This document shows positions 6,101 through 45,465 of a DNA stretch of 64,000 bases, piece by piece (position 1 is the stretch's first letter; each line of letters starts with the position of its first letter). Position numbers and translations under genes: made by a program. The stretch is taken from assembly GCA_000004985.1 (NCBI GenBank), contig GG738855.1, one strand, 5' to 3'. The stretch is from Naegleria gruberi (lineage: Eukaryota). A model generated the notes under the pieces. That model did not search any database. It had not been told where the DNA came from and worked only from the letters and a program-made list of their open reading frames with translations.

Positions 6101-7264
6101 TTTGAGCTTGTCAACTTTTGGTGATTTTGGCATATTTACAAGGGATAGACGGGTGTTTGATGTAGAATTGTCTTCACTGTCACTCTCTTCAGCAATGGAT
6201 TCTTGACTGATAAGATTGGAAGTTTGGCTTGGTATTTTGGGTGGAGAGGAAGAAATTACTTGCTCTTGGTTTGATTTTTCAACTACAATATGAGATGACT
6301 CAGAATGAGTTGGTGTTACTATTGGCTCATCCGCATTGGGTCTCGAAAGAAGCATGAAATCGAGATTTTCTCTTGCATTAGTTGGGGAGGTATTAGAAAC
6401 AGGTGTAACATCATATTCTAAAGTATCCATTTTGAGCTTTTTGAGTGGTGTAATTTCTTCTGATGAAATTATTGATGAAGAAGGTTTTGGAGAAATTTGA
6501 GAAGATTCAGAGTCAGCTCCATTCTCTCTCATTGAATCATCTTCAACATCCTTGATTACTCTCTTACTTCTCTTCTTTCGTCTTTTTACAGCTGTGGTCA
6601 ATATTGTTGATGATGAATCCTCTGAAACAGTATCATCTGTCATTGTATCTGTTTGTTGATTTTCTTCAAGGAGCCGTTTTTTAGTATTTTCTAAACTCGT
6701 AATTTCTTCCAATAACTTTGCTTTTTCCTTTTCCAAAATGTCTTTCCAATATTCTCTGTCTCTTCCTCCAAAATAGTTAACCCTTGTGGGTAAGTGTAAA
6801 TTCTTTTGTTTGGCTATAGAATTGAGTAGATTTTTCAGAAAGTCTTCACAAAATCCAAAAGCTTTCAATCCTGTTAAATCTTCTGTATTGACTCCTATAT
6901 ATACATAATCCACGATAGTTTTATCCGTATTATTGATTGCATTCTCATCTTCAACCATTTCGGGTTGATACATTTGAAATGCTTGTTTGAAAGGTTGAGA
7001 GCAGCAACTTCCCATAAATCTTTCTCCGACACCTTTCCTACTCGAAACATCAGTAACCACAAATTGTGGTCCAACTAAACCTTTTATCACCTCGATTTGA
7101 AATTGTATTAATTCTATAGCATTATCAGTGGACCAATCTTTTTCATTTGGTTTTTTAGTTCTTCTCCTTCTCCTCAGCCTGAGTATTGCTGTATAACCTG
7201 ATGGATAGGGATGTTGATATTCTCCCTTGAATTTCCTCCAATAACTTTCCACTGACCCGAACAA
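3119..7264 (-). CDS. Very large (1381 aa) hypothetical protein: N-terminal globular region plus coiled coil, long S/T/P/E-rich disordered middle, C-terminal beta-propeller-like domain
   Basis: Single uninterrupted ORF. Track M is a TTG; the true ATG is not resolved. The last roughly 400 aa have repeated hydrophobic-strand periodicity (..LLKYMLTSDF..VIGSTNSYIGIWRMSSG..GLIIIFNCRTAQ..) suggestive of WD40 or another beta-propeller. The stop lies 1 nt from the NEK stop (convergent). Confidence 0.6.
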   Translation of the reverse strand: MFGSVESYWRKFKGEYQHPYPSGYTAILRLRRRRRTKKPNEKDWSTDNAIELIQFQIEVIKGLVGPQFVVTDVSSRKGVGERFMGSCCSQPFKQAFQMYQPEMVEDENAINNTDKTIVDYVYIGVNTEDLTGLKAFGFCEDFLKNLLNSIAKQKNLHLPTRVNYFGGRDREYWKDILEKEKAKLLEEITSLENTKKRLLEENQQTDTMTDDTVSEDSSSTILTTAVKRRKKRSKRVIKDVEDDSMRENGADSESSQISPKPSSSIISSEEITPLKKLKMDTLEYDVTPVSNTSPTNARENLDFMLLSRPNADEPIVTPTHSESSHIVVEKSNQEQVISSSPPKIPSQTSNLISQESIAEESDSEDNSTSNTRLSLVNMPKSPKVDKLKVISPLQNRKMPIERRNEEFAVPSLPSQSKRSTQESSTQKSSSTSSSLTASLPSQNILPPPTPPTSSTIEETIKQNEDKMIVDIIEKPSETTVQPLIEITIATEEVVKKDPMLDEGEEIQPLDNKKSTQEEKVETSFNSPPKDTSFTEPAIIETIEKKPPITSEQIVQAEVETIVEQVKPIESTTKTCEPIEKPKSPLRINTDLPKSPTLDSPSSTPDSLPPGDDLLFMEDLEPANHQPVPTNSSATTTITIIEAKQSSPNPTTKPSPNKPVLIMPTVDINFNTNDSADLNSPSLSTPTELPNLEEKLETKTETAPSPPPPTVQKPNISLEKTSTDKLDEDDETPQTLPSMNLDITPPAKEETTKEGNVKQADTMIDDEEVPPTPTPIKPKEKAQSPQIVIPPTVYYDPLESQGANVSDDEMEEDNNPPPMSTPPHNTSRILSYTTPKSDVILEEVEETQYSAVKIVLNPGDISPSKKKNPFMQVQDDETDDELSPRTPSQTFEIKDFSSPPINFSPILTKANLGSPPIVNKGETLDVKPKYELEPTIAVNFSLNFESEDEEEIPSSPVLASSSATKPVTSENDADKSNLSTPPLSSPPRASFASPMRSQPVLSQNSLPRHPIEKIDKQHPLKSYSRIKIKGPVLNMIFSPVGDPRLTICTKTQVSLIELTGSEWIQTELFGLENEENEEFYSSKFTPDGEMLIIASSSFEPSITMTMSILDDENPAQADGTLSYHIRFFDIDGSSIRSQLGQEKKPLLSLDDVRSPISCMEVYDSTLMVATNNGELLKYMLTSDFTSRVKVVTFQTLNGKEAINNLQFVPELKDFVIGSTNSYIGIWRMSSGKLLQKIALNPYSVIYSSVIKAVTTGANQGIFLVAIHKENVTENAQLCGLFFLNEAATRLHTYNKKDIPKLSDSSNDNVTAIGVSGNAEISPYLVTGTSKGLIIIFNCRTAQCVGILQDIEGEKVGSCCFHDKFPLFAAGGTRNVVIYYQTE

Positions 7265-7289
7265 AGTCTTTTTCGTTGATGAATTCCAA

Positions 7290-7592
7290 TCAGGAAGAAG
7301 GAAACTCTATCAAATCACCAAGAGAAATAACCTCCAATGGAAGACATCTCAACGTGAAGGGTGTTGTTACAATTGTTCTAGTGTTCTGTAATGATGTGTT
7401 TTTACTCTCGCCTCGATCGGATCTATTATTATTCACTAATTGATCATCAGAAAAATCGTAAATATCACAACAAAAAGTCGAATATAATTCCTCATGATTT
7501 GTTATCATCACGGAAGAAGCAGATCCTCCACCACTCGATGAAGCAGAAGCAGCAACAGAAGAGGCCGATGATGTTAATATTCTTCCGTTCAT
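7290..7592 (-). CDS. Small S/A-rich ORF (100 aa) directly upstream of the large gene; status uncertain (possibly 5' exon/uORF or spurious)
   Basis: Track ORF with a genuine ATG at 7592. Low complexity (SSASSVAASASSSGGGSASS). No homology. Confidence 0.2.
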   Translation of the reverse strand: MNGRILTSSASSVAASASSSGGGSASSVMITNHEELYSTFCCDIYDFSDDQLVNNNRSDRGESKNTSLQNTRTIVTTPFTLRCLPLEVISLGDLIEFPSS

Positions 7593-7801
7593 TTTTTTTG
7601 TCTTTTCTTAGGAATGAGAGAAATTGTAATTTTGATGATAATTATAACAATATTGTTCGGAAATATCGGAATATTATTGGTTACTATTTGGTTTAATAAT
7701 GAAAGAATTGTTTATTGAATCAGTAACAATTTACAAAAAGATATCTTTTTGCATCATCATTACTCTTTGAACTTTTCGAATAAAAAACAAAATACAAAAA
7801 A

Positions 7802-9208
7802 ATGAAATCGTCCACTTTAATAATATTCATATGTTCACAGGCACTGTTTCTAGCACTGTCAGCACTCACATTTCGATTATATCTATCATCAAAAAACAAT
7901 GAAAAATGTTCAATTTCTTTTTTAATATTGACAGCTCCACGTCAAATGGATGGCAATAGTTTTTATTATCTAGGACAAACAATTAATAGTATTGCTAAAT
8001 TAAAACAACGATTATTCAATCCATGTATTGTAATATTCAATAGCAAGGGAGAAGCTTTTAAAGAAGAAGTTGAATTTATGGTGAGAGGTTCAGCTCTCGA
8101 TGCACAAGTAACAATCTATCACAAGAAGAAGGAATGGGAAAGTAATAATTTTGATAATTCACAATTATCACCTCGGAAGAAACATCAATCCAATGATTTT
8201 TATGATATGATCAAGACGGTTGATTCAAACTTTAGAGTGAAGGATAATACTCCAATTGCCATCATGGAAGATGATTTTATAATGTGTGAAGGAGCTTATT
8301 ATCATTTTGGTAGGATTTTTGAAAAGATTCATGAATTGGAATCGAGTGGAAAGGATTGGGTTGGTTATCGATTCTCCTTCGGTCTGAATGGTGTGCTAAT
8401 TCAGAGAAAGGATCTTGGCAGTATGTTGAGATTTTTGGAGAGAGAATCTGAAACTGATACACCAATTGATTGGCTATTGGAACAATACTTCCATCAATTG
8501 AATCATTATGGAAAATTACGTTTCCAAGACAGATTATTCTATATTTATAGATATCAATTAATGAAACACATTGGTGTCACATCGTCTGTTGGAAATGAGA
8601 GAAATATTGAGAGAAATAATGTTGATTTTCCAAATTGTATGGAACCTCAAACACAATCTCAACTTTTAGTACTGTTCCAGGCAGAGGCATGTCCAAACTC
8701 ATACTTTTTCCCGTGTAATGATACCCTAACTGGATCCAATACACTCACCAAAAGAATTCCAAAGTCAAGTATGGCAGGAGGTATTCCATATATTGACGAT
8801 AAGGACTATGAGTTTGAACATGATACTCTTCGATTGCCTTCCTATTCATCCTCAAATCCTTTACCATTGGTTGAATTGAAGAAAGTGAGAAGTGTTCCAT
8901 GTGATGCATCAGAGAGTTGTTCAACATGTTGTGAACGATTGGGCTCAGTGTGTGAACCTCAATTCTTTTCCTATATTAATAGATGTGATGAGTTGAAACG
9001 ATATGCACCAAATTGTAAGTGCATGTATGAGAGAAATCCTGTTTTGGACTCTAGCTCACCTCTCCTTGATGGAGACTATTGCATTCTTGGTTCAAGACCA
9101 AGCAGATTCAGATGTAAAAATCAAATGGATGGCAAACGAAGATTGTGTCCATGTTTCAGGGAGAAACAAAACTCATTCGATAGGTCAAGAAAGACTTCCA
9201 ATAATTAA
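7802..9208 (+). CDS. Type-II-membrane/secreted protein with DxD-containing (glycosyltransferase-like) domain and C-terminal Cys-rich module
   Basis: ATG at 7802. N-terminal hydrophobic signal/anchor (LIIFICSQALFLALSALTF). An EDDF motif precedes an aromatic-rich core. The C-terminal roughly 110 aa contain about 16 Cys (CDASESCSTCCERLGSVCEP..CKCMYER..CPCF). Family not recognised. Confidence 0.5.
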   Translation: MKSSTLIIFICSQALFLALSALTFRLYLSSKNNEKCSISFLILTAPRQMDGNSFYYLGQTINSIAKLKQRLFNPCIVIFNSKGEAFKEEVEFMVRGSALDAQVTIYHKKKEWESNNFDNSQLSPRKKHQSNDFYDMIKTVDSNFRVKDNTPIAIMEDDFIMCEGAYYHFGRIFEKIHELESSGKDWVGYRFSFGLNGVLIQRKDLGSMLRFLERESETDTPIDWLLEQYFHQLNHYGKLRFQDRLFYIYRYQLMKHIGVTSSVGNERNIERNNVDFPNCMEPQTQSQLLVLFQAEACPNSYFFPCNDTLTGSNTLTKRIPKSSMAGGIPYIDDKDYEFEHDTLRLPSYSSSNPLPLVELKKVRSVPCDASESCSTCCERLGSVCEPQFFSYINRCDELKRYAPNCKCMYERNPVLDSSSPLLDGDYCILGSRPSRFRCKNQMDGKRRLCPCFREKQNSFDRSRKTSNN

Positions 9209-15372: not shown

Positions 15373-17631
15373 ATGTTCCGTCCCTCATCCTTCATAAGAT
15401 CAACAGGATCTCGACAACCCTTGGGAGATTTTTCATCTTCTTCTAATAACTCGACACCAAACACCCCTCCTCCACCTACATCCACTAATGAAACTAATAG
15501 TAATAATAATATTGGAAAATCATTTTTGAGAGGTTCTTCATTTGTTGGAGGATTTACTCAGTCCTTCAACCTTCCTATTAAGAGAACAACAGAAGTAGTG
15601 GAAACAGATAACAATGTCCGAAGAAATAGCGAGGCCACACAACGTCTTCCTTCACCCTCAATAGCAGAAACCATTGAAGTTGATAAAAACCTAGTATCCA
15701 GCATCAAATCATGGGCATTTGAGGGTTCAATTAAGTTACCAGAATGTTTGAATCCAAATTTTAAACCTAAAATACAACCAGAAGAAGAATCAGAAATGAA
15801 AAGATCGGAAAGTGTAGTAATTGATGAAAAAAAGTCTTTTAATGAGCTTTTCGACTCTTTATTCTCATCATCTTCCTTAGAGGAAACAGCAGGAGAAAAA
15901 TCTCCCTCAACAACAGATGATTCTGATGTTGCCTCTCCCCCTAATACACCACCTTCATCAACTAATAGTGTAGGAACACCTCCAAAGGGAGGTTTAAAAT
16001 CTCTTTTATTCGGAAAAAAGTATAAACCAACAACAACAGCAACAGTAAGCAATATTCCTCTGGTTAAGGAAACACCTAAGCCTCTAAATCCATATAGAAT
16101 TGCCCATGTTCCTCTTCGAGATGACCAATTTGGCAGAACAGGGTTTAAATTGGAATTAACAGATTTTCAAATTATAGAAACTTTCAGAGATGTATCTAGA
16201 TATAATAGAAAAAAAGATATTGACGAGCAACGAAGAATGAGAAACCAACTGATGGAAAATTCAAAAAACCAAAATAATGATACTTCAGATTCTGTTCTGG
16301 AAAGAGAGTATGAATACTCGTGCTATAGTTCCCAATCTGATTCCCCTGTTGTGGATAAGAATTCAGAGGAAATATTGAGAAGGAAAAAGTTTATAGAGAA
16401 GGAAATAATGGAAACAGAGATTGGATATGTGAGAAATCTTGTACATTTATTTGAGTATTATTTATTGCCAATTAGGAAAGTTGGTATTCTATCAAAAGAA
16501 AACTATCAGATAGTATTCAAAAACATTAATATGATTCTAGCAATTAATACTACATTGCTTACAGAATTCGAAAAAGCATACTATTCACTAAAACCAAAAG
16601 AGTCGATTGCGTCGATATTCAGTTCTAGAATTCCAGCAATTAAGCTCTATGTAGGATATGTAAATAGTTACCCGAGTGCAATCAAGTGTTTGAATGAAAT
16701 CTTGTCAAAAGATAATAATTTTGATTCATGGGAGAAATCTCAACGAAATACTAAAGTGAACGGAGTTCATTTGTTTCCACTGAGGAGTTTTATTGCGTTA
16801 CCTCTGCAAAGAATTACTAAGTACTACCTCTTATTCAATGATTTGTTGGAAACATTGGATGGTGATGACTATTACTCTCTTAGCGCAGTTATTGATGAAA
16901 TGAAATCCCTGTCCGCTTATTGTATCGAGAAGAAGAATGAATCAGATAATTTGGAAACTCTGTTAGAGTTCCAGAAAAAGCTGAAACTAAAAGAACTGGT
17001 AAGAGGAGATAGAACCTTCCTTAGGGAAGGAGTTGGAAGTGTAGATAATGGTGACACCATAGTTGAGTTATATCTATTCTCAGACCTTTTAGTTTATGTC
17101 ATGTCAAATGAATCGAAACGAGTAGTTAAGGAGGTACCTCTCAAAGCTGGTAATCTTATTGAACTAACCAAAATCTCATCCACAACTGTGATGCTTTCCT
17201 TTCAGAATGAAAAGAGTTATATCACATTTGATTCTGAAGAAGAGCAAAAAGTGTGGTCATCTGCAATCAATGAACAACTCAATTCCAGCTTAACAAAGGC
17301 AAGAATAAGAAGAAGAGGAAATTCAAGCACTCCACTAGAGGAAAAGATTATTTTTGCAGGCTACCTCACAAAATCCAAAGGCTTGAGCAAGAAAACTAGA
17401 TTCCATACATTATCTTCCATGGGAGGTGTAAAATACTATGACAAGCCCAATGGTGACATGAAAGGTTCCTATCAAATCAAGGGAAGTAAGATATTCAAAA
17501 AATCACCTACAACTTTCTTACTCACTGATAGTGATGGTAAATCCTTTTACTATAGCACAGAAAACGACAGTATTGCCTCAACTTGGATCAATCGATTCAT
17601 TGGTTTGGGAGCAGTCATTATGAAACAATAA
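15373..17631 (+). CDS. Rho guanine-nucleotide exchange factor with DH and PH domains
   Basis: ATG at 15373. S/N/P-rich N-terminal third. DH domain (..RRKKFIEKEIMETEIGYVRNLVHLFEYYLLP.. LRSFIALPLQRITKYYLLFNDLLE) is followed by a PH-like C-terminus (..IFAGYLTKSKGLSKKTRFHTLSSMGGVKYYDK..). Intronless. Confidence 0.75.
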   Translation: MFRPSSFIRSTGSRQPLGDFSSSSNNSTPNTPPPPTSTNETNSNNNIGKSFLRGSSFVGGFTQSFNLPIKRTTEVVETDNNVRRNSEATQRLPSPSIAETIEVDKNLVSSIKSWAFEGSIKLPECLNPNFKPKIQPEEESEMKRSESVVIDEKKSFNELFDSLFSSSSLEETAGEKSPSTTDDSDVASPPNTPPSSTNSVGTPPKGGLKSLLFGKKYKPTTTATVSNIPLVKETPKPLNPYRIAHVPLRDDQFGRTGFKLELTDFQIIETFRDVSRYNRKKDIDEQRRMRNQLMENSKNQNNDTSDSVLEREYEYSCYSSQSDSPVVDKNSEEILRRKKFIEKEIMETEIGYVRNLVHLFEYYLLPIRKVGILSKENYQIVFKNINMILAINTTLLTEFEKAYYSLKPKESIASIFSSRIPAIKLYVGYVNSYPSAIKCLNEILSKDNNFDSWEKSQRNTKVNGVHLFPLRSFIALPLQRITKYYLLFNDLLETLDGDDYYSLSAVIDEMKSLSAYCIEKKNESDNLETLLEFQKKLKLKELVRGDRTFLREGVGSVDNGDTIVELYLFSDLLVYVMSNESKRVVKEVPLKAGNLIELTKISSTTVMLSFQNEKSYITFDSEEEQKVWSSAINEQLNSSLTKARIRRRGNSSTPLEEKIIFAGYLTKSKGLSKKTRFHTLSSMGGVKYYDKPNGDMKGSYQIKGSKIFKKSPTTFLLTDSDGKSFYYSTENDSIASTWINRFIGLGAVIMKQ

Positions 17632-17670: not shown

Positions 17671-19938
17671 ATGCTTCAAAAATCAACAAGAAGAATTTCA
17701 TCACTTTATGCTGGTTGTGGTCGTATTTCATCAACACCATCATCATCGGGAGTTGTACTCAACACTAATAGTTCAATCAAAATAATTAACCATCAATACA
17801 GATGTTATAATAATCATTTGGCAAAATTAAATCGTCTATCGGAATTATCAAATAATAACAAGAAACAATTTAAAAATCATCGTGATAGACAATATCAACC
17901 AATGGATAACATTGAAACACCAAAGGAAGTAAAGAATGATGTAACTACAGAATCCTATACTAAAATATTGAAAAAGTTCTTCTTAAAGGTTCACCCTGAC
18001 TTTTTCCAACAAGATCCACCAAAACAACAACAAAACAAGGAGTCCTTCTCAAAATTGAACGAACTTTTAAATTGGACTAACGAATATACCCAATTAACAC
18101 TTGATAATAAGAATTTGAATGAAGAGGAAATAGCTGACCTGGAAAAGAGATTGAATAGACTTGGTCCTATTCCAAGCGTTGATGAATCATTTGTTTTCTA
18201 TGTTAAGGAAACTGGAAGACAAAAATCTGAACCATTTAGAATTGAAGTTTTGTTTTCTTTACCAAAGAAGGTTCAATTCAATGGAAAATTAAAGAGTAGA
18301 TTGATTTTAACTCAACGTTTGGAAGAATTAGTAACTTCACTTTTGGAAAAATCAAAAATCATAACTGCTGAGGAAGCTAAAGCAAGAAGAGACATTGCTT
18401 TGGAACAATACAGAGAAATGGAAGAGTCCGTGGGTTCAAAGGGTAAGAAGACCTATAAATCACTGAAAGAAGAGTTACGTATGGCTCTCCAAAATAATTT
18501 ACAAGGAGCAGTCAACCTTGAAAAATTAAGAAGAGGTGAAGAAGATGATGAAGAATGGTGGTGGGATAAAGACTTGCCATCCATTGAACACTTGGTTACA
18601 CACGGCATGCTCTTCTTCTCTAAGAATATTACAGCAGAACAAACCATCAAAGCTATGAATCAATTGAAGAATGGTCTTGGTGAGATGAGATATTATGAAT
18701 GGAGTGATATTCCATTAATGATTACAGAAAAAACTGGCAAGTATGCTGTAAATGATCCTGTTGATGGGTTCATTTGCATTCCTTATGACTTTACTCCATT
18801 CGATTTTGTCAAGGAAATCATTACCAACGAAAAGAACATGACACTCCTCGTTGAAAAACGTGAATTGACAAGAAAAAAGGCCGAAGCTATTCAAAACATT
18901 AGAGAAAAACTTATTGAAGAAGTTGGTTTCTCTGATTTAACCATTTCACCAGAATTGACCTCAGAAGAACTCTATACATTTATTGAAAACTTTGAAAAGA
19001 GATACTTAAGTAATGACAAGATGAAATTGTTACTGAAAGACCTCTGTATCATCATTGATAACAAGTATTCAGCAAGTCCAGATGGATACATTTCAATTCA
19101 TTGGAACTTTATGCACAATGGAAAGGACAATATGTTCGAATTTTTGAAAGATTTAGGAGCTCAAAAAATCAAGAATATCAAAGATATGGGAAGAACTCTC
19201 AGCAATCTTAAGAGAGCATGTGTTTCACTCGGTGAAGAACTCATTGATAAACTTAAATGTAAAGAACTCAATTTGACAACCTATGCCGATTTGAACGAAT
19301 CCAATATGAAACGGTATCAAACTCTCCCAGTTACCCACGAATATATGAAACGATTGAGAGAATGTTGCCTCTTCTTGGAACGTTATGATTGGAGCACACA
19401 TACTTTCTATTTGGTCAATACTTTGGATTTACCTAAAGGTTTCAAACTTCCACTCAAACAAGTTCCTCATGTCAAGACAGAGGCCGATGTTAAGAGTTTA
19501 ATGAGAAGAATGACAATATATGGTGATACTATCATTGATATGGGCGCCAGAGCAGTCTATATTCCTGTAAACTTTACTGAAAATCAATTGTTCGAAACAG
19601 TCAACAAATATTGGAAGATGATTGAAAAACCTCAATTGCAATTGGATGGTGATGATTTTACAGATGTTGTAGATCCTCAAGGATTCCAACAATATAGAAA
19701 TTTGGCCTCTGAACTCGTCAAACAAGCTGAGTTTATGCTGACAAAGAAGAGAGCAGAAAGATATCAACAATTGGCTGAATTCCTCAACAGTCTTGAAGAT
19801 CAACAATTGTATGGTAAGGGTGCCAATAGTATTATGGAAGCAGCACTAGATAGACAAGAAGATGAAAGATATATCAATCTGTATCGTACTTGGTTCAGAA
19901 TTAGAGATATTCCATTAGATGTTTTTGAAACTCAATAA
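17671..19938 (+). CDS. Hypothetical protein with mitochondrial-presequence-like N-terminus and a J-domain-like HPD segment
   Basis: ATG at 17671, only 39 bp after the RhoGEF stop on the same strand. N-terminus MLQKSTRRISSLYAGCGRISS. Segment ..YTKILKKFFLKVHPDFFQQD..FSKLNELL has an HPD tripeptide in a J-like context. No confident family assignment. Confidence 0.5.
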   Translation: MLQKSTRRISSLYAGCGRISSTPSSSGVVLNTNSSIKIINHQYRCYNNHLAKLNRLSELSNNNKKQFKNHRDRQYQPMDNIETPKEVKNDVTTESYTKILKKFFLKVHPDFFQQDPPKQQQNKESFSKLNELLNWTNEYTQLTLDNKNLNEEEIADLEKRLNRLGPIPSVDESFVFYVKETGRQKSEPFRIEVLFSLPKKVQFNGKLKSRLILTQRLEELVTSLLEKSKIITAEEAKARRDIALEQYREMEESVGSKGKKTYKSLKEELRMALQNNLQGAVNLEKLRRGEEDDEEWWWDKDLPSIEHLVTHGMLFFSKNITAEQTIKAMNQLKNGLGEMRYYEWSDIPLMITEKTGKYAVNDPVDGFICIPYDFTPFDFVKEIITNEKNMTLLVEKRELTRKKAEAIQNIREKLIEEVGFSDLTISPELTSEELYTFIENFEKRYLSNDKMKLLLKDLCIIIDNKYSASPDGYISIHWNFMHNGKDNMFEFLKDLGAQKIKNIKDMGRTLSNLKRACVSLGEELIDKLKCKELNLTTYADLNESNMKRYQTLPVTHEYMKRLRECCLFLERYDWSTHTFYLVNTLDLPKGFKLPLKQVPHVKTEADVKSLMRRMTIYGDTIIDMGARAVYIPVNFTENQLFETVNKYWKMIEKPQLQLDGDDFTDVVDPQGFQQYRNLASELVKQAEFMLTKKRAERYQQLAEFLNSLEDQQLYGKGANSIMEAALDRQEDERYINLYRTWFRIRDIPLDVFETQ

Positions 19939-40811: not shown

Positions 40812-40948
40812 TTTTTTATAATAATTTAATAAATAAATTTTCGCGTTTTTCCATTCAACCAAGAGTATGGACCATTTTAGTTTTGGAAGGAAAAGCGGAT
40901 CTCCATTTTGTAAAGTTAAGCTCAATTGAAATTAATTAATTGAATAAG

Positions 40949-41911
40949 CTAATTGAAAATCTTCCAAATGCCTCTGATTGACTTTTGGTGAACAGCATAT
41001 GGAACCTCAAGAAGACCTCTCAACATTTTCATAATATCTAACCCCATTGTTAAACCGATAATACCAGCAATAGAACCCAATAAACCTGGAATATCTGTCG
41101 ATAGGACTTCATCAATAACTTGAACATCAAGCGTTCCATAAGAGACAGAGATAATAATATCTGCAGAACTGGCATTCGATATTTTGATTTGTGACAAGGT
41201 TGGCTCCCACAGTGTAGTTGAATTCCCATCAAGAAAGTTCTTTGTCACCTTATTCAGAGTATACATATTATCCTTGTATGGAGAAGCAAATTGTGTCTCT
41301 GCAAAAATGTCAGCTTCAGCAGCTATTTCATGGAATGAAATCTGAGCACCATATTTCCCTGCAGTAGGAGCTTTCATTTTAAAGTTCAATGATATTGATC
41401 CTCCAAATCCTGCAGTTGATGTTGTCTTAATACTCTTAATTTCATTATTAAGAAAATAACAATTAAATTTCAGTCCAGAAGTTACAATCTCCTTCTTTTG
41501 ATTTGTAATGGTTGTTGAAGACTTTACTCCAGAGCTGGAGTAAGAATAAGCTCCAGTAAAAGTAATATCACAATAATCACAAGCTTCGGAAGGAGGCTTG
41601 GCATTATAATTACAAATGGTCATCCCAGGAAATTCCATCTTATCCTGAGTGACATACGAGATTGTTGTTGTAGGCTGGTTTTTACTCTTCTCATAGGTAT
41701 CCGATACGTCATAAATATACCAGCCACTAAATCCTAGAAAAATCAACCAACCAATAATTGCGAAAATATCCCTTACTGCAAATTTCCATTTCTTTTTAGG
41801 AGCAGCTGGAGCAGAAATTTGTATACCTATTTTCTCTCCAACCTTTTCAACTCCTTCTACAAGAGTATGCACGGGAACAGTTGAATTCATTTTTTTAAGC
41901 ATGTAGTTCAT
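40949..41911 (-). CDS. Compact two-TM membrane protein with ENaC/degenerin-like motifs (paralogue 1)
   Basis: ATG at 41911. TM1 (IFAIIGWLIFLGFSGWYIY) is followed by ..DKMEFPGMTICNYN.. (compare ENaC/ASIC post-TM1 FPAVTxCN). A Cys-containing ectodomain follows. Pre-TM2 ..GSIAGIIGLTMGLDIMKM.. resembles ENaC/ASIC GG..GLF.G.S.L. About 320 aa. Confidence 0.45.
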   Translation of the reverse strand: MNYMLKKMNSTVPVHTLVEGVEKVGEKIGIQISAPAAPKKKWKFAVRDIFAIIGWLIFLGFSGWYIYDVSDTYEKSKNQPTTTISYVTQDKMEFPGMTICNYNAKPPSEACDYCDITFTGAYSYSSSGVKSSTTITNQKKEIVTSGLKFNCYFLNNEIKSIKTTSTAGFGGSISLNFKMKAPTAGKYGAQISFHEIAAEADIFAETQFASPYKDNMYTLNKVTKNFLDGNSTTLWEPTLSQIKISNASSADIIISVSYGTLDVQVIDEVLSTDIPGLLGSIAGIIGLTMGLDIMKMLRGLLEVPYAVHQKSIRGIWKIFN

Positions 41912-42035
41912 ATTGTATTTGGGGTGTTTCTACAGAGAGTGTATGAACTTGAACATAAAAGCGGGAGATGAATGGCTTCTCGATTATGTTTATTAAATTC
42001 ATAATGTATTATATTACATTGTTGGTTATTAAACC

Positions 42036-42977
42036 TTAATTCAAAGCTTCATAGACCAGTCTGTGTTGTTTAGTTTTGACTGCTTCGAATATAATAAACC
42101 CAACTCTTATCATTTTTAGGAGATCCAGGCCGAACAATACACCCAACATACCAGCAATTTCTCCCATCAATTCAGTCCAAGTTTTAGACTCGAATTCATT
42201 TCTAGTTGTAATGTCCAATTTACCATAACCAACAGAAACCACAACTGTTCCATCAGAATAGTTAATTAATTTTACAGAAGACTTCACTGCCTTATAGAGT
42301 GTGTTATCAGTTCTATACTCGACTGATGTCTTTAATCTCTTAATGTTCTCTAAAGAGAGAGTGAAAAAGTTATCATCTCCAACTGATGCAAAATTGAACT
42401 TGGCATGGTCATTATCGACAGAAACACCTTCATCATAAGTATTGAAAAATACATAAAGACCAGCTCTTTTAAGACTATTAATCTTTGAGAAATCATCAAG
42501 TGTAAACTCAAAAGCAATTGATCCACCATATCCACTTTGATTTGATTTGTATTTTGATTTTCCATCTCCATTAAATGTAAAACACTGATACGTGTAGACA
42601 GTACCTGCCTGTGTTACTGTAATTTTTGATGATGAAAGAGTTTCAGTGCAACTCCCTCCAGGAATTGTGCATCCAGTAAAACTTAGTGCTGTATCTGGTA
42701 TTGATGAACAAAATGTTGTCTTGGGAAAGTTCAATGATGAATAAGAAGTGACATCCACTGATACTGGAGGATGGGTCTGAAGATAAGAGTAGCCAGATAT
42801 AACACTCCACATATAAACTCCCAACATTGCAATACTTCCTAGCCATCCGAAAATTACAAGAAATTCTCCATAAGTGTATCCATATTTCTTCTCAAGCTCA
42901 TCTCTTGCTCCTTCTCCACTTCCATCATCGGAATCTTCTTCTGCTCCTAAAACATCAACAGGTTGATCGGTGGTCAT
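42036..42977 (-). CDS. Compact two-TM membrane protein with ENaC/degenerin-like motifs (paralogue 2)
   Basis: ATG at 42977. Acidic N-terminus. TM1 (FLVIFGWLGSIAMLGVYMW) ..SLNFPKTTFCS.. Cys-rich ectodomain ..ELMGEIAGMLGVLFGLDLLKM.. TM2. Same architecture as, and clear paralogy with, 40949..41911. Confidence 0.45.
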   Translation of the reverse strand: MTTDQPVDVLGAEEDSDDGSGEGARDELEKKYGYTYGEFLVIFGWLGSIAMLGVYMWSVISGYSYLQTHPPVSVDVTSYSSLNFPKTTFCSSIPDTALSFTGCTIPGGSCTETLSSSKITVTQAGTVYTYQCFTFNGDGKSKYKSNQSGYGGSIAFEFTLDDFSKINSLKRAGLYVFFNTYDEGVSVDNDHAKFNFASVGDDNFFTLSLENIKRLKTSVEYRTDNTLYKAVKSSVKLINYSDGTVVVSVGYGKLDITTRNEFESKTWTELMGEIAGMLGVLFGLDLLKMIRVGFIIFEAVKTKQHRLVYEALN

Positions 42978-43282: not shown

Positions 43283-43972
43283 ATGTTTGGTGAAGGAAGA
43301 AAAGAAAAAATGTCATCAAGCAACAACACTCATTCATCATCATCTTCCCTTCTCTTGGATATTGAAGACAATTTGAACAAAAAGAAAGAAAATTCAAATC
43401 CTATTAGTAAACCATCCTTTCTCAAATTATCACAGCAACAAGATGGCACAAATGAAGGAATGCCTAGATTTGCTCCTTCCGAGCTCTTGTCCAGACTACA
43501 AAGCTTTTTACCACAAATTAAAGAAGCAAACGAAAAGCTAGAAAGTGGTGAAGTTGAAGGCTTTTCGGATTGTGTTGAAATTATTGAGAATGATGATGAG
43601 GAGGAACAAGATGGTGCTCAACTTCAAGAGGAAAATTATAATGATGAAGAAGAATCCGAACATAAACCCTATGTGGAGATGAATGTAGTATTGGGAGTAT
43701 TAGAACAAAAACAAAAAACAAGCCTAATTACAGATATAGATGGACCAACAGAGGATGAACAAAAATTGGAAGAAAAAGATGAAGTTGTAAATTTGAGAAT
43801 TGGAAAGGATTTTACTCCACAAGAAAGCAAAAATATTGAACAGGATATGGTGGCATATATGAATATTATGAATTCTCTTCTCGGTTCTTCATCAGCATTG
43901 AAAAGAAAACGAGTAGAGGACAACAGTGATAGTGGCAGTAGTGGTGATAGTAGTGACAGTGATCAAGATTAG
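43283..43972 (+). CDS. Acidic hypothetical protein (229 aa) with S-rich ends
   Basis: Track ORF; ATG at 43283 or an internal Met. Conserved-looking segment FAPSELLSRLQSFLPQIKEANEKLESGE is followed by D/E-rich tracts and a C-terminal SSGDSSDSDQD. Its 3' end overlaps the convergent TPR gene by 4 nt. Confidence 0.4.
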   Translation: MFGEGRKEKMSSSNNTHSSSSSLLLDIEDNLNKKKENSNPISKPSFLKLSQQQDGTNEGMPRFAPSELLSRLQSFLPQIKEANEKLESGEVEGFSDCVEIIENDDEEEQDGAQLQEENYNDEEESEHKPYVEMNVVLGVLEQKQKTSLITDIDGPTEDEQKLEEKDEVVNLRIGKDFTPQESKNIEQDMVAYMNIMNSLLGSSSALKRKRVEDNSDSGSSGDSSDSDQD

Positions 43973-45408
43973 AACATTACATTTGCTACATATTTACGTT
44001 TCAAGTATTCAGCCATGGTTCTATCCTCTTTTGCTAATTCTGTTTGACCCAATGCCTCATAGGCTTCGCATCTATCTCTGAAAGCAGGGAAGAAGGTATT
44101 ATCAATATTAATTGCTTCAGTATTGTCATTTACACATTTCCAATACTCCTTCTTTCTGAAATATGACAGACCTCTCTTATTAAGTGCATTGACCTTGTAT
44201 TGTTTCAATATTTGTGCATTTGCTGGATTCTTCTTTAAACAAGTGTCAATATATTCCATACAGTATGCGAAATGAGAACGTGCCATTTCATGATCCTCAT
44301 ACTTTGTGTAAGCAATACCTAATTTCACCAAAATATCCACATAAACTGCATTAAAATCAATATTATTTCCTTTGGCAACACAATCCTTCACAAATAAATT
44401 AAAGTGATCAATAAATCTATTGTAGAATGAAAGAGCAACTTGATCATTACCCAATTTTGAGTGACAATCACCAGCATTCATCTCTGCATGGTATTCAGTT
44501 GGATCTATCTTTAAGATCTTATCATAACAACTGACTGCCTCTTTCAGATAATTTTCTCTTTCTTCAACTCGTGTGATTGGCAAAATTTTGGATAATTCTT
44601 CCAAAAAGATACCCTTAGCATAGAGTAGTCCACAATGTGTGTCGTCCTTTTCAATTGCTCCAGAAACGAGCTTGATTCCCTCCTTCAACATGTCAGTTTT
44701 TTGACTGAGGTCATACCTCTTATCTTGTGAAATTGATAACAAGTTGTAAGATAATTTTTCAATAATAGTTGAGGCCAAAACCGATCTATTTTCACACAAT
44801 TCCAAAGATTTTTCGAGAATTTGATTGGCTTCATTAATATTTCCAGTAGCTACATAACAATCATGTAAATTTACACAAATGTCAGAAATTTCATATTTTG
44901 TCAAAGATTCAGTTGGGATCTTTTCACATTGTTCCAGGTAGAATGATCTTAATTCCTCAAATAATGGCTTTGATTTTTCATATTCTCCCAAAGAAAAGAA
45001 CATTGTGCCAAGAAGTTCTTTCAGCTTGTAAATACTGACTTGGTAATGTTCATCACTTTCATCAATTTCTTCCGAAAAAGTAACAATTTTCTTTTCCAAA
45101 TACTTGATGGCATCCTTGTTATCTAAAACCCAAAATTCCTCTGCATTCTTAGCAGCATCACTAATCTTTTTCGAAAGTATTGATTCGTGAAATGGTGCCT
45201 GTATGAGGTGTGATGGTTTTTCTGGTTTTAAATTTGGATTTGTATCGATGGCCTTGTTGGACAAACCTGGCTTTTGATTTAATACCACACCACCATGATG
45301 AAGTGAGAAAGTTTTCAATTGTACTCTAGTATTTCCGAAAAATGTCAATGATGAAGAAGTTTTATAAAGACGATTGAGTCTGAGAATGCTTTGTCCAATC
45401 TTTTTCAT
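43969..45408 (-). CDS. Tetratricopeptide-repeat (TPR) protein with N-terminal presequence-like region
   Basis: True ATG about 45408 (MKKIGQSILRLNRLYKTSSSLTFF..); the track start at 45420 is a TTG. Multiple TPR-like helix pairs (..YHAEMNAGDCHSKLGNDQVALSFYNRFIDH.., ..FPAFRDRCEAYEALGQTELAKEDR..). Confidence 0.55.
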   Translation of the reverse strand: MKKIGQSILRLNRLYKTSSSLTFFGNTRVQLKTFSLHHGGVVLNQKPGLSNKAIDTNPNLKPEKPSHLIQAPFHESILSKKISDAAKNAEEFWVLDNKDAIKYLEKKIVTFSEEIDESDEHYQVSIYKLKELLGTMFFSLGEYEKSKPLFEELRSFYLEQCEKIPTESLTKYEISDICVNLHDCYVATGNINEANQILEKSLELCENRSVLASTIIEKLSYNLLSISQDKRYDLSQKTDMLKEGIKLVSGAIEKDDTHCGLLYAKGIFLEELSKILPITRVEERENYLKEAVSCYDKILKIDPTEYHAEMNAGDCHSKLGNDQVALSFYNRFIDHFNLFVKDCVAKGNNIDFNAVYVDILVKLGIAYTKYEDHEMARSHFAYCMEYIDTCLKKNPANAQILKQYKVNALNKRGLSYFRKKEYWKCVNDNTEAINIDNTFFPAFRDRCEAYEALGQTELAKEDRTMAEYLKRKYVANVMF

Positions 45409-45465
45409 TTTTTCTTTCAATTTTAATATTAAATAATTTATGATGAATACGAAATTATTAAAAAA

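Follow-up and report, generated by a model that had tools for sequence, protein, structure and literature searches.

Tandem short DEG/ENaC/ASIC-like proteins of Naegleria gruberi belong to a protist clade with profile-level similarity to PAC/TMEM206 channels

Channels of the DEG/ENaC/ASIC superfamily (Pfam PF00858; ASIC1-5, ENaC alpha, beta, gamma and delta, FaNaC, degenerins and pickpocket proteins) are built from subunits of 450-700 amino acids (aa) and are generally held to have arisen in animals, a few puzzling cases aside. Studer et al. are said to have reported an ENaC/degenerin-like gene in Naegleria gruberi in 2011. Non-metazoan homologues have been described from Tunicaraptor unikontum, Cafeteria, and Symbiodinium and other dinoflagellates (PMC10507113 and its reference 28); recent surveys list only Tunicaraptor, Cafeteria and dinoflagellates outside animals (PMC10507113; PMC9822975), and none turned up in BLASTp screens of Discoba, Amoebozoa and Apusomonadida (PMC10507113). 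PAC/TMEM206 (ASOR), a chloride channel activated by protons and reported only from vertebrates and one hemichordate as a single-copy gene (PMC6663466), has been called ‘unrelated in amino acid sequence’ to ENaC/DEG proteins and its likeness to them ‘structural convergence’ (PMC7904269). P2X receptors, which are trimeric ATP-gated proteins with two transmembrane segments (TM1 and TM2) and are known from protists, share the same overall topology and trimeric logic. Here we describe two adjacent genes in a 64,000-nucleotide stretch of N. gruberi contig GG738855.1 (the window), whose products of 320 aa (p1) and 313 aa (p2) were found to be short relatives of the DEG/ENaC/ASIC proteins, and the protist clade of such ‘mini’ proteins to which they belong.

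The original prediction, made from the sequence of the window, took the two genes for same-strand paralogues encoding a stripped-down core of the DEG/ENaC family, laid out as a short N-terminus, TM1, a Cys-containing ectodomain and TM2. Both open reading frames (ORFs) were present on the minus strand, and p1 and p2 are old paralogues, 27% identical over the full length (E 4e-30). Hydropathy placed two hydrophobic segments in each protein (residues ~42-66 and ~270-295 in p1, ~36-60 and ~262-300 in p2), overlapping the predicted helices and separated by an ectodomain with four Cys in either case. N-glycosylation sequons were confined to the region between the segments, with the exception of one N-terminal sequon in p1. 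With this topology, the N- and C-termini would lie on the same side of the membrane.

Both proteins matched PF00858 (ASC), p1 with an E-value of 3.3e-10 (40 bits) and p2 with 2.2e-6 (27.4 bits), above the curated gathering cut-off of 23.6 bits. A ‘canonical’ profile built only from 26 DEG/ENaC proteins of 450-700 aa, with a consensus containing TxHG, FPAVTICN, YGNCYTFN, a Cys-rich thumb and LLGxIGGxLGLFLGxS, scored p1 at 65.4 bits and p2 at 61.9 bits, each in three co-linear stretches corresponding to TM1 plus FPxxTxC, the beta-ball CxxFN with the strands that follow it, and beta12 plus TM2. Reversed p1 and p2 reached 0.8 and -2.7 bits, respectively, and the top scores among 1000 composition-preserving local shuffles, which leave hydrophobic segments in place, were 14.7 and 9.1 bits. 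As these controls fall far below the real scores, the similarity is not an artefact of transmembrane composition, a concern that the original prediction had itself raised. Alignment of the mini-family profile to the canonical profile in hhalign gave a probability of 99.8% (E 3.6e-28) over 265 columns running from TM1 to TM2. The closest canonical proteins are only ~19% identical across the core.

The post-TM1 strings MEFPGMTICN (p1) and LNFPKTTFCS (p2) align, as had been suggested, with FPAVTxCN in ASIC and in the canonical profile; C100 of p1 is invariant in 49/49 family members and P95 is kept in 48/49. The beta-ball motif (G)xCxxFN with its conserved Cys pair is likewise present in both proteins and aligns to NCYTFN of the canonical profile, p1 C151 and N155 being invariant in all 49 members. 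The TM2 strings of the pair, SIAGIIGLTMGLDIMKM and EIAGMLGVLFGLDLLKM, were also present, but p1 reads SIAG where EIAG had been quoted for both.

AlphaFold2 (AF2), run with a 49-sequence family alignment, produced confident models with a pLDDT of 88.7 for p1 and 88.0 for p2 and a pTM of 0.75 for both, with N-termini of low confidence. Each model consists of a long TM1 helix, ~12 strands with almost no helix, and TM2, and the ectodomain is predicted to adopt the palm and beta-ball fold that had been anticipated. In p1, TM2 is formed by helices 274-289 and 293-309, split exactly at G290-L291-D292, and TM2 of p2 is split exactly at G-L-D 283-285. This break is the position aligned with the G-A-S belt, where TM2 of ASIC is discontinuous. 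Collectively, these results confirm the observation made in the original prediction and support its interpretation.

Several features of canonical channels were absent or altered in the mini proteins, which are only ~315 aa long. Finger and thumb/knuckle are missing: the 265 columns aligned by hhalign span 426 canonical columns, and the canonical blocks left without a counterpart are the helical finger that follows beta1 and the thumb/knuckle region, rich in Cys. With these parts absent, there is no acidic pocket, no protease-cleaved inhibitory tract and no peptide site. The ASIC1 ectodomain has 14 Cys, compared with four in the mini ectodomain. No HG motif precedes TM1 in p1 or p2, and the motif was found in 1/38 mini members versus 19/25 canonical proteins. 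The G/S-x-S selectivity filter is absent from both proteins, its Ser being replaced by Asp (G-L-D), as had been noticed originally. At this position Asp occupies 60/80 aligned mini-clade hits, whereas Ser occupies 22/30 canonical hits; the Gly of the motif is retained in 79/80 of the mini-clade hits. Three residues further on, Lys (Lys295 in p1) is found in 61/80 mini-clade hits, as opposed to Thr/Ser in canonical proteins. Arg298 of p1 takes the position of the ASIC1 TM2 Glu, and Arg is frequent there in the mini clade. Since the sequence, topology and fold hallmarks of the superfamily are present and three canonical features are not, we file the mini proteins as a distinct variant rather than as ordinary members. 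A separate observation concerns three relatives of intermediate length, P0127 (443 aa), P0126 (437 aa) and P0132 (504 aa), in which the filter-position motif is G-F-K, G-F-G or G-V-G; a Lys at this position would recall the PAC anion filter.

Word-indexed homologue searches returned only 2, 1 and 3 hits, and the clade came into view only when 1.84 billion cluster representatives were searched exhaustively with a profile. This approach resulted in 314 proteins at E <= 1e-3 and 91 at E <= 1e-10. Roughly the hundred best hits were 280-400 aa long and matched the whole profile in one stretch, whereas long canonical proteins started only at ~E 1e-9 and were matched in two to three stretches. Among full-length mini members, 47/49 were hit by Pfam ASC. 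Hallmarks of the clade are FPAVTICNWN, F-x-C-Y-x-F-N-N-D, T-G-Y-x-G-S and a TM2 block LLG(D/E)FAGMLGTLMG-L-D-x-x-K. N. gruberi has at least eight paralogues in all, at least six of them besides p1 and p2 (NAEGRDRAFT_64420 and 64421, which are adjacent, 66414, 62132, 69903 and 81362). Other Naegleria members were found in N. fowleri (adjacent FDP41_006660 and 006661) and N. lovaniensis, and beyond the genus in the malawimonad Gefionella okellyi, the amoebozoans Planoprotostelium fungivorum and Ceratiomyxa fruticulosa and the apusomonad Thecamonas trahens; the remaining members come from metagenomes and metatranscriptomes. No short G-x-D type protein was seen among the vertebrate hits examined. 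The annotation gives some N. gruberi paralogues a long N-terminal extension, for example NAEGRDRAFT_81362 (1563 aa, in which the mini-channel domain is limited to residues 1372-1563 and was matched in three stretches) and NAEGRDRAFT_64420 (501 aa). Such proteins may have several genuine domains, or their gene models may be fusions.

Neighbouring divergent paralogues recur at several loci, namely p1/p2, 64420/64421, N. fowleri 006660/006661 and a 13.3-kb contig of JGI metagenome 3300002220 (L001). The last carries an adjacent mini pair of 302 and 338 aa (7018-7926, minus strand, and 8001-9017, plus strand), arranged head-to-head (divergently) 74 bp apart. The 338-aa protein best matches N. gruberi 64420 (43%) and the 302-aa protein 64421 (36%), suggesting, from sequence identity, that a 64420/64421-type pair may be conserved in heteroloboseans. 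Only these two matches resemble a conserved pair. The idea that every pair combines a ‘type I’ and a ‘type II’ paralogue was rejected for p2: in a rough tree p2 fell together with the 302-aa L001 protein and NAEGRDRAFT_64421, but p2 is closer to ‘type I’ (31-33%) than to these two (24%). Recurrent adjacency of paralogues is compatible with heteromers or with co-regulation.

Searching the PDB with the mini-family profile detected every PAC sequence, with E-values of 1.5e-10 for Xenopus, 1.5e-8 for bovine, 1.8e-8 for human and 3.6e-5 for pufferfish PAC, well apart from the first unrelated hit at E 0.008. Human PAC scored 36.7 bits in two co-linear stretches, compared with 0.4 bits for the reversed sequence and a maximum of 10.2 bits among 2000 local shuffles; its score was only 2.0 bits against the canonical profile but already reached 15.4 bits with a three-sequence Naegleria-type profile. 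In hhalign, the mini family aligned with PAC over 229 columns from TM1 to TM2 with a probability of 91.9% (E 6.9e-7), while the controls gave 0.8% (canonical profile) and 0.3% (reversed PAC). The clade is linked to PAC by homology detectable in profile comparisons and by the minimal fold that both share. The best matching segment is the TM1-beta1 junction, ‘P-s-t-S-V-S-Y-e-e-k-D’ in the mini family versus ‘HPVMSVSYKEVD’ in PAC. No single mini protein is a hidden PAC orthologue (top pairwise score 13.5 bits), and yet jointly the mini proteins outscored their own shuffles against PAC (Mann-Whitney p 1.7e-13). Pfam TMEM206 (PF15122), to which human PAC aligns with 564 bits, gave no hit at E <= 10 for p1, p2 and five other members, and none at E <= 0.01 in any of the 49 members. 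No P2X relationship was detectable, P2X2 having an E-value of 0.85 with the family profile and being absent from the strong structural hits.

PAC and the mini family also differ in several respects. PAC has neither FPxxTxCN nor CxxFN, both of which the mini proteins carry; the mini family is a multi-copy protist family, whereas PAC is single-copy; and where PAC has its anion filter, Lys319, the mini proteins appear to have G-L-D...K. HMMER aligned Asp292 of p1 to PAC K319, in a stretch with a two-residue gap that makes the register uncertain, hhalign ended one residue earlier, and the conserved Lys of the mini clade lies three residues past Asp292. Right after TM1, p2 reads H-P-P-V-S-V-D-V (His69-Pro70 at 42768-42773, minus strand), which aligns with K-H98-P-V-M-S-V-S-Y of PAC. 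PAC His98 is a key pH sensor; at the equivalent column p2 has His and p1 has Gln, and since His occurs in only 4/49 members, a family-wide pH sensor at this position was rejected. As far as sequence profiles can tell, the data favour divergence of PAC and DEG/ENaC from a common ancestor, with the protist clade as a putative sequence intermediate.

We consider it probable that p1 and p2 are pore-forming subunits of a minimal channel of the DEG/ENaC/ASIC superfamily. In each subunit, TM1 and a pore-lining TM2 would flank an ectodomain of ~195 residues, with short cytosolic stretches at both termini. This ectodomain is predicted to be reduced to beta-sheet palm and beta-ball, held together by the conserved Cys pair of the family. 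By homology with ASIC, ENaC and PAC, three subunits would be arranged around a central pore, either three copies of one protein or a mixture of divergent paralogues, for instance p1 with p2. At the TM2 break, which would form the constriction, the Ser ring would give way to a ring of Asp, followed one helical turn lower by Lys. The Asp ring would favour cations, and divalents would probably bind strongly or block the pore. Lacking finger, thumb, acidic pocket and HG re-entrant loop, such a channel would have no ASIC proton sensor, no activation by proteolysis as in ENaC and no gating by peptide binding. Gating would instead have to arise from the palm and ‘wrist’, as in PAC, and candidate stimuli for a freshwater amoeba may include pH, ionic strength, divalents and osmotic or mechanical load. 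Our best guess would be a cation-permeable channel that senses the ionic, pH or osmotic state of the medium.

Several points weigh against this reading. Two canonical pore features, the Ser of G-x-S and the HG motif, are both missing, and the conserved Lys295 with the frequent Arg298 would put positive charge in the lower pore below the Asp, so that cation selectivity is not readable from the sequence. Anion selectivity in PAC depends on a Lys of TM2 and is inverted by the K319E substitution (PMC7904269). Functionally, the mini proteins might be PAC-like anion channels, activated by acid or otherwise and mechanistically nearer to TMEM206 than to ENaC/ASIC, with Lys/Arg in lower TM2 setting the selectivity. 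We rate this as unlikely, because individual proteins match Pfam ASC and not Pfam TMEM206, the similarity to DEG/ENaC is much stronger than that to PAC (1e-18 versus 1e-10, and 99.8% versus 91.9% in hhalign), the hidden Markov model alignment sets Asp rather than Lys opposite K319 (with the uncertainty of its two-residue gap), and the PAC-type His is confined to the few members noted above.

It is also conceivable, if quite improbable, that the palm/beta-ball scaffold is reused in a two-TM protein that is no channel at all but, for example, an accessory subunit, a receptor, or a protein of cargo or adhesion type. We attach even less credence to a decaying or mis-annotated remnant, whether contamination or a horizontally acquired metazoan DEG/ENaC gene that lost finger and thumb. 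Patchy distribution of DEG/ENaC outside animals would suit such an origin, and other homologues from protists have been discussed in terms of lateral transfer (PMC10507113). However, the ORFs are intact, and p2 and residues 8-320 of p1 are identical to annotated proteins on a 613-kb N. gruberi scaffold; their GC content (33-37%) is like that of the surrounding genome. A remnant is also hard to reconcile with the number of N. gruberi paralogues and the orthologues in N. fowleri and N. lovaniensis, with the recurrence of the short architecture and GxD motif in a malawimonad, amoebozoans and an apusomonad, or with the low identity to the nearest canonical proteins.

Features of the locus are listed in Table 1. 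The p2 product is identical to XP_002680074.1 (NAEGRDRAFT_64711, D2V788), and p1 corresponds to an NCBI ‘predicted protein [Naegleria gruberi]’ whose model starts at Met8 and has 313 aa. In-frame stops lie six and one codons 5' of the two ATGs, so neither protein can be extended without an intron, nor are they pieces of longer exons. The spacer presumably holds the 3' end of p2 and the promoter of p1.

Table 1 Coordinates of the p1/p2 gene pair and its sequence features in the window
Feature	Coordinates	Strand	Description
p2 gene	42036..42977	-	313-aa mini DEG/ENaC-like subunit (putative), upstream member of pair
p2 TM1 helix	42774..42872	-	Residues 36-68; AF2 secondary structure, hydropathy
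p2 post-TM1 signature FPKTTFCS	42705..42728	-	Residues 84-91; aligned to FPaVTiCN
p2 beta-ball motif C-F-T-F-N	42570..42584	-	Residues 132-136
p2 TM2	42072..42179	-	Residues 267-302; AF2 helices 267-282 and 286-302
p2 G283-L284-D285	42123-42131	-	Break in TM2; codons ggc ctg gat read at 42131-42123
p2-p1 spacer	41912..42035	-	124 bp, AT-rich, from p2 stop to p1 ATG; sequence read
p1 gene	40949..41911	-	320-aa ORF, mini DEG/ENaC-like subunit (putative), downstream member of pair
p1 TM1 helix	41678..41776	-	Residues 46-78; AF2 secondary structure, hydropathy
p1 post-TM1 signature FPGMTICN	41609..41632	-	Residues 94-101; aligns to FPAVTxCN of ASIC and canonical profiles
p1 beta-ball motif C-Y-F-L-N	41447..41461	-	Residues 151-155; counterpart of canonical G-N-C-Y-T-F-N
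p1 TM2	40985..41092	-	Residues 274-309; AF2 secondary structure, alignment to ASIC TM2
p1 G290-L291-D292	41036..41044	-	At canonical G-x-S (GAS-belt) filter position; alignments

No third paralogue, tRNA or tandem repeat was found in the window, and base composition was even throughout (32-38% GC). The flanking genes are unrelated housekeeping genes (acetyl-CoA acetyltransferase (thiolase), a TPR protein, a Pex2/12 RING peroxin and a RhoGEF), and the neighbours of the pair offered no functional hint. In the ORF list, the thiolase is over-extended to a TTG start at 40925, its first Met lying 38 codons inward. On the other side of the pair, an acidic, Ser-rich 229-aa ORF (43283-43972, plus strand) is convergent with a TPR-repeat gene (43969-45420, minus strand) and overlaps its 3' end by 4 bp, the locus being tightly packed. 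Further away, a 755-aa ORF (17671-19938, plus strand) combines DUF4460, DUF4461 and a weak ribosomal-protein-L17-like stretch, directly preceded on the same strand by a RhoGEF-PH gene (15373-17631).

ENaC-like genes in Naegleria are not new, p1 and p2 being already annotated in public resources as predicted proteins with precomputed Pfam ASC hits. In the literature searched, no description was found of the short G-x-D clade, its reduced architecture, Asp filter, breadth or link to PAC, and a broad minimal clade with an Asp/Lys pore motif that bridges DEG/ENaC and PAC appears to be new. The published homologues from unicellular eukaryotes are DEG/ENaC-related, as are the mini proteins, but those described in PMC10507113 cluster with canonical ASIC/ENaC groups. 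The short G-x-D clade was missed by the BLASTp survey of that study, given its empty result for Discoba, Amoebozoa and Apusomonadida. DEG/ENaC-related genes in unicellular eukaryotes argue that the family predates, or extends beyond, animals.

In a neighbour-joining tree of mini, canonical and PAC sequences with capped distances, neither the split of mini from the rest (1/100) nor that of canonical from the rest (19/100) was supported, and we therefore make no claim from distance trees on the root or on which form is ancestral. Tentatively, and with slightly less than even confidence, we propose that the layout of the mini clade (TM1, palm, beta-ball and TM2), found in Discoba, malawimonads, Amoebozoa and apusomonads, is an ancient channel core of eukaryote-wide occurrence, ancestral to both DEG/ENaC/ASIC and PAC. 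If so, DEG/ENaC/ASIC channels would have arisen by insertion of finger and thumb, gain of the HG loop and a Ser filter, and PAC/TMEM206 by charge inversion in TM2; the likeness between PAC and ASIC would reflect divergence rather than ‘structural convergence’, and the Asp/Lys filter would be a third selectivity type.

The protist clade, a bona fide member of PF00858 that has the reduced architecture of PAC and is linked to it by sequence statistics, thereby offers a concrete candidate for what the ancestor of the superfamily looked like and makes convergence versus divergence testable. With ~315 aa and an unusual pore motif of Asp and Lys, these naturally minimal subunits would be useful for structure-function work on gating and selectivity, and the presence of the clade in the pathogen N. 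fowleri, with no such protein among the vertebrate hits examined, might be of interest to pharmacology.

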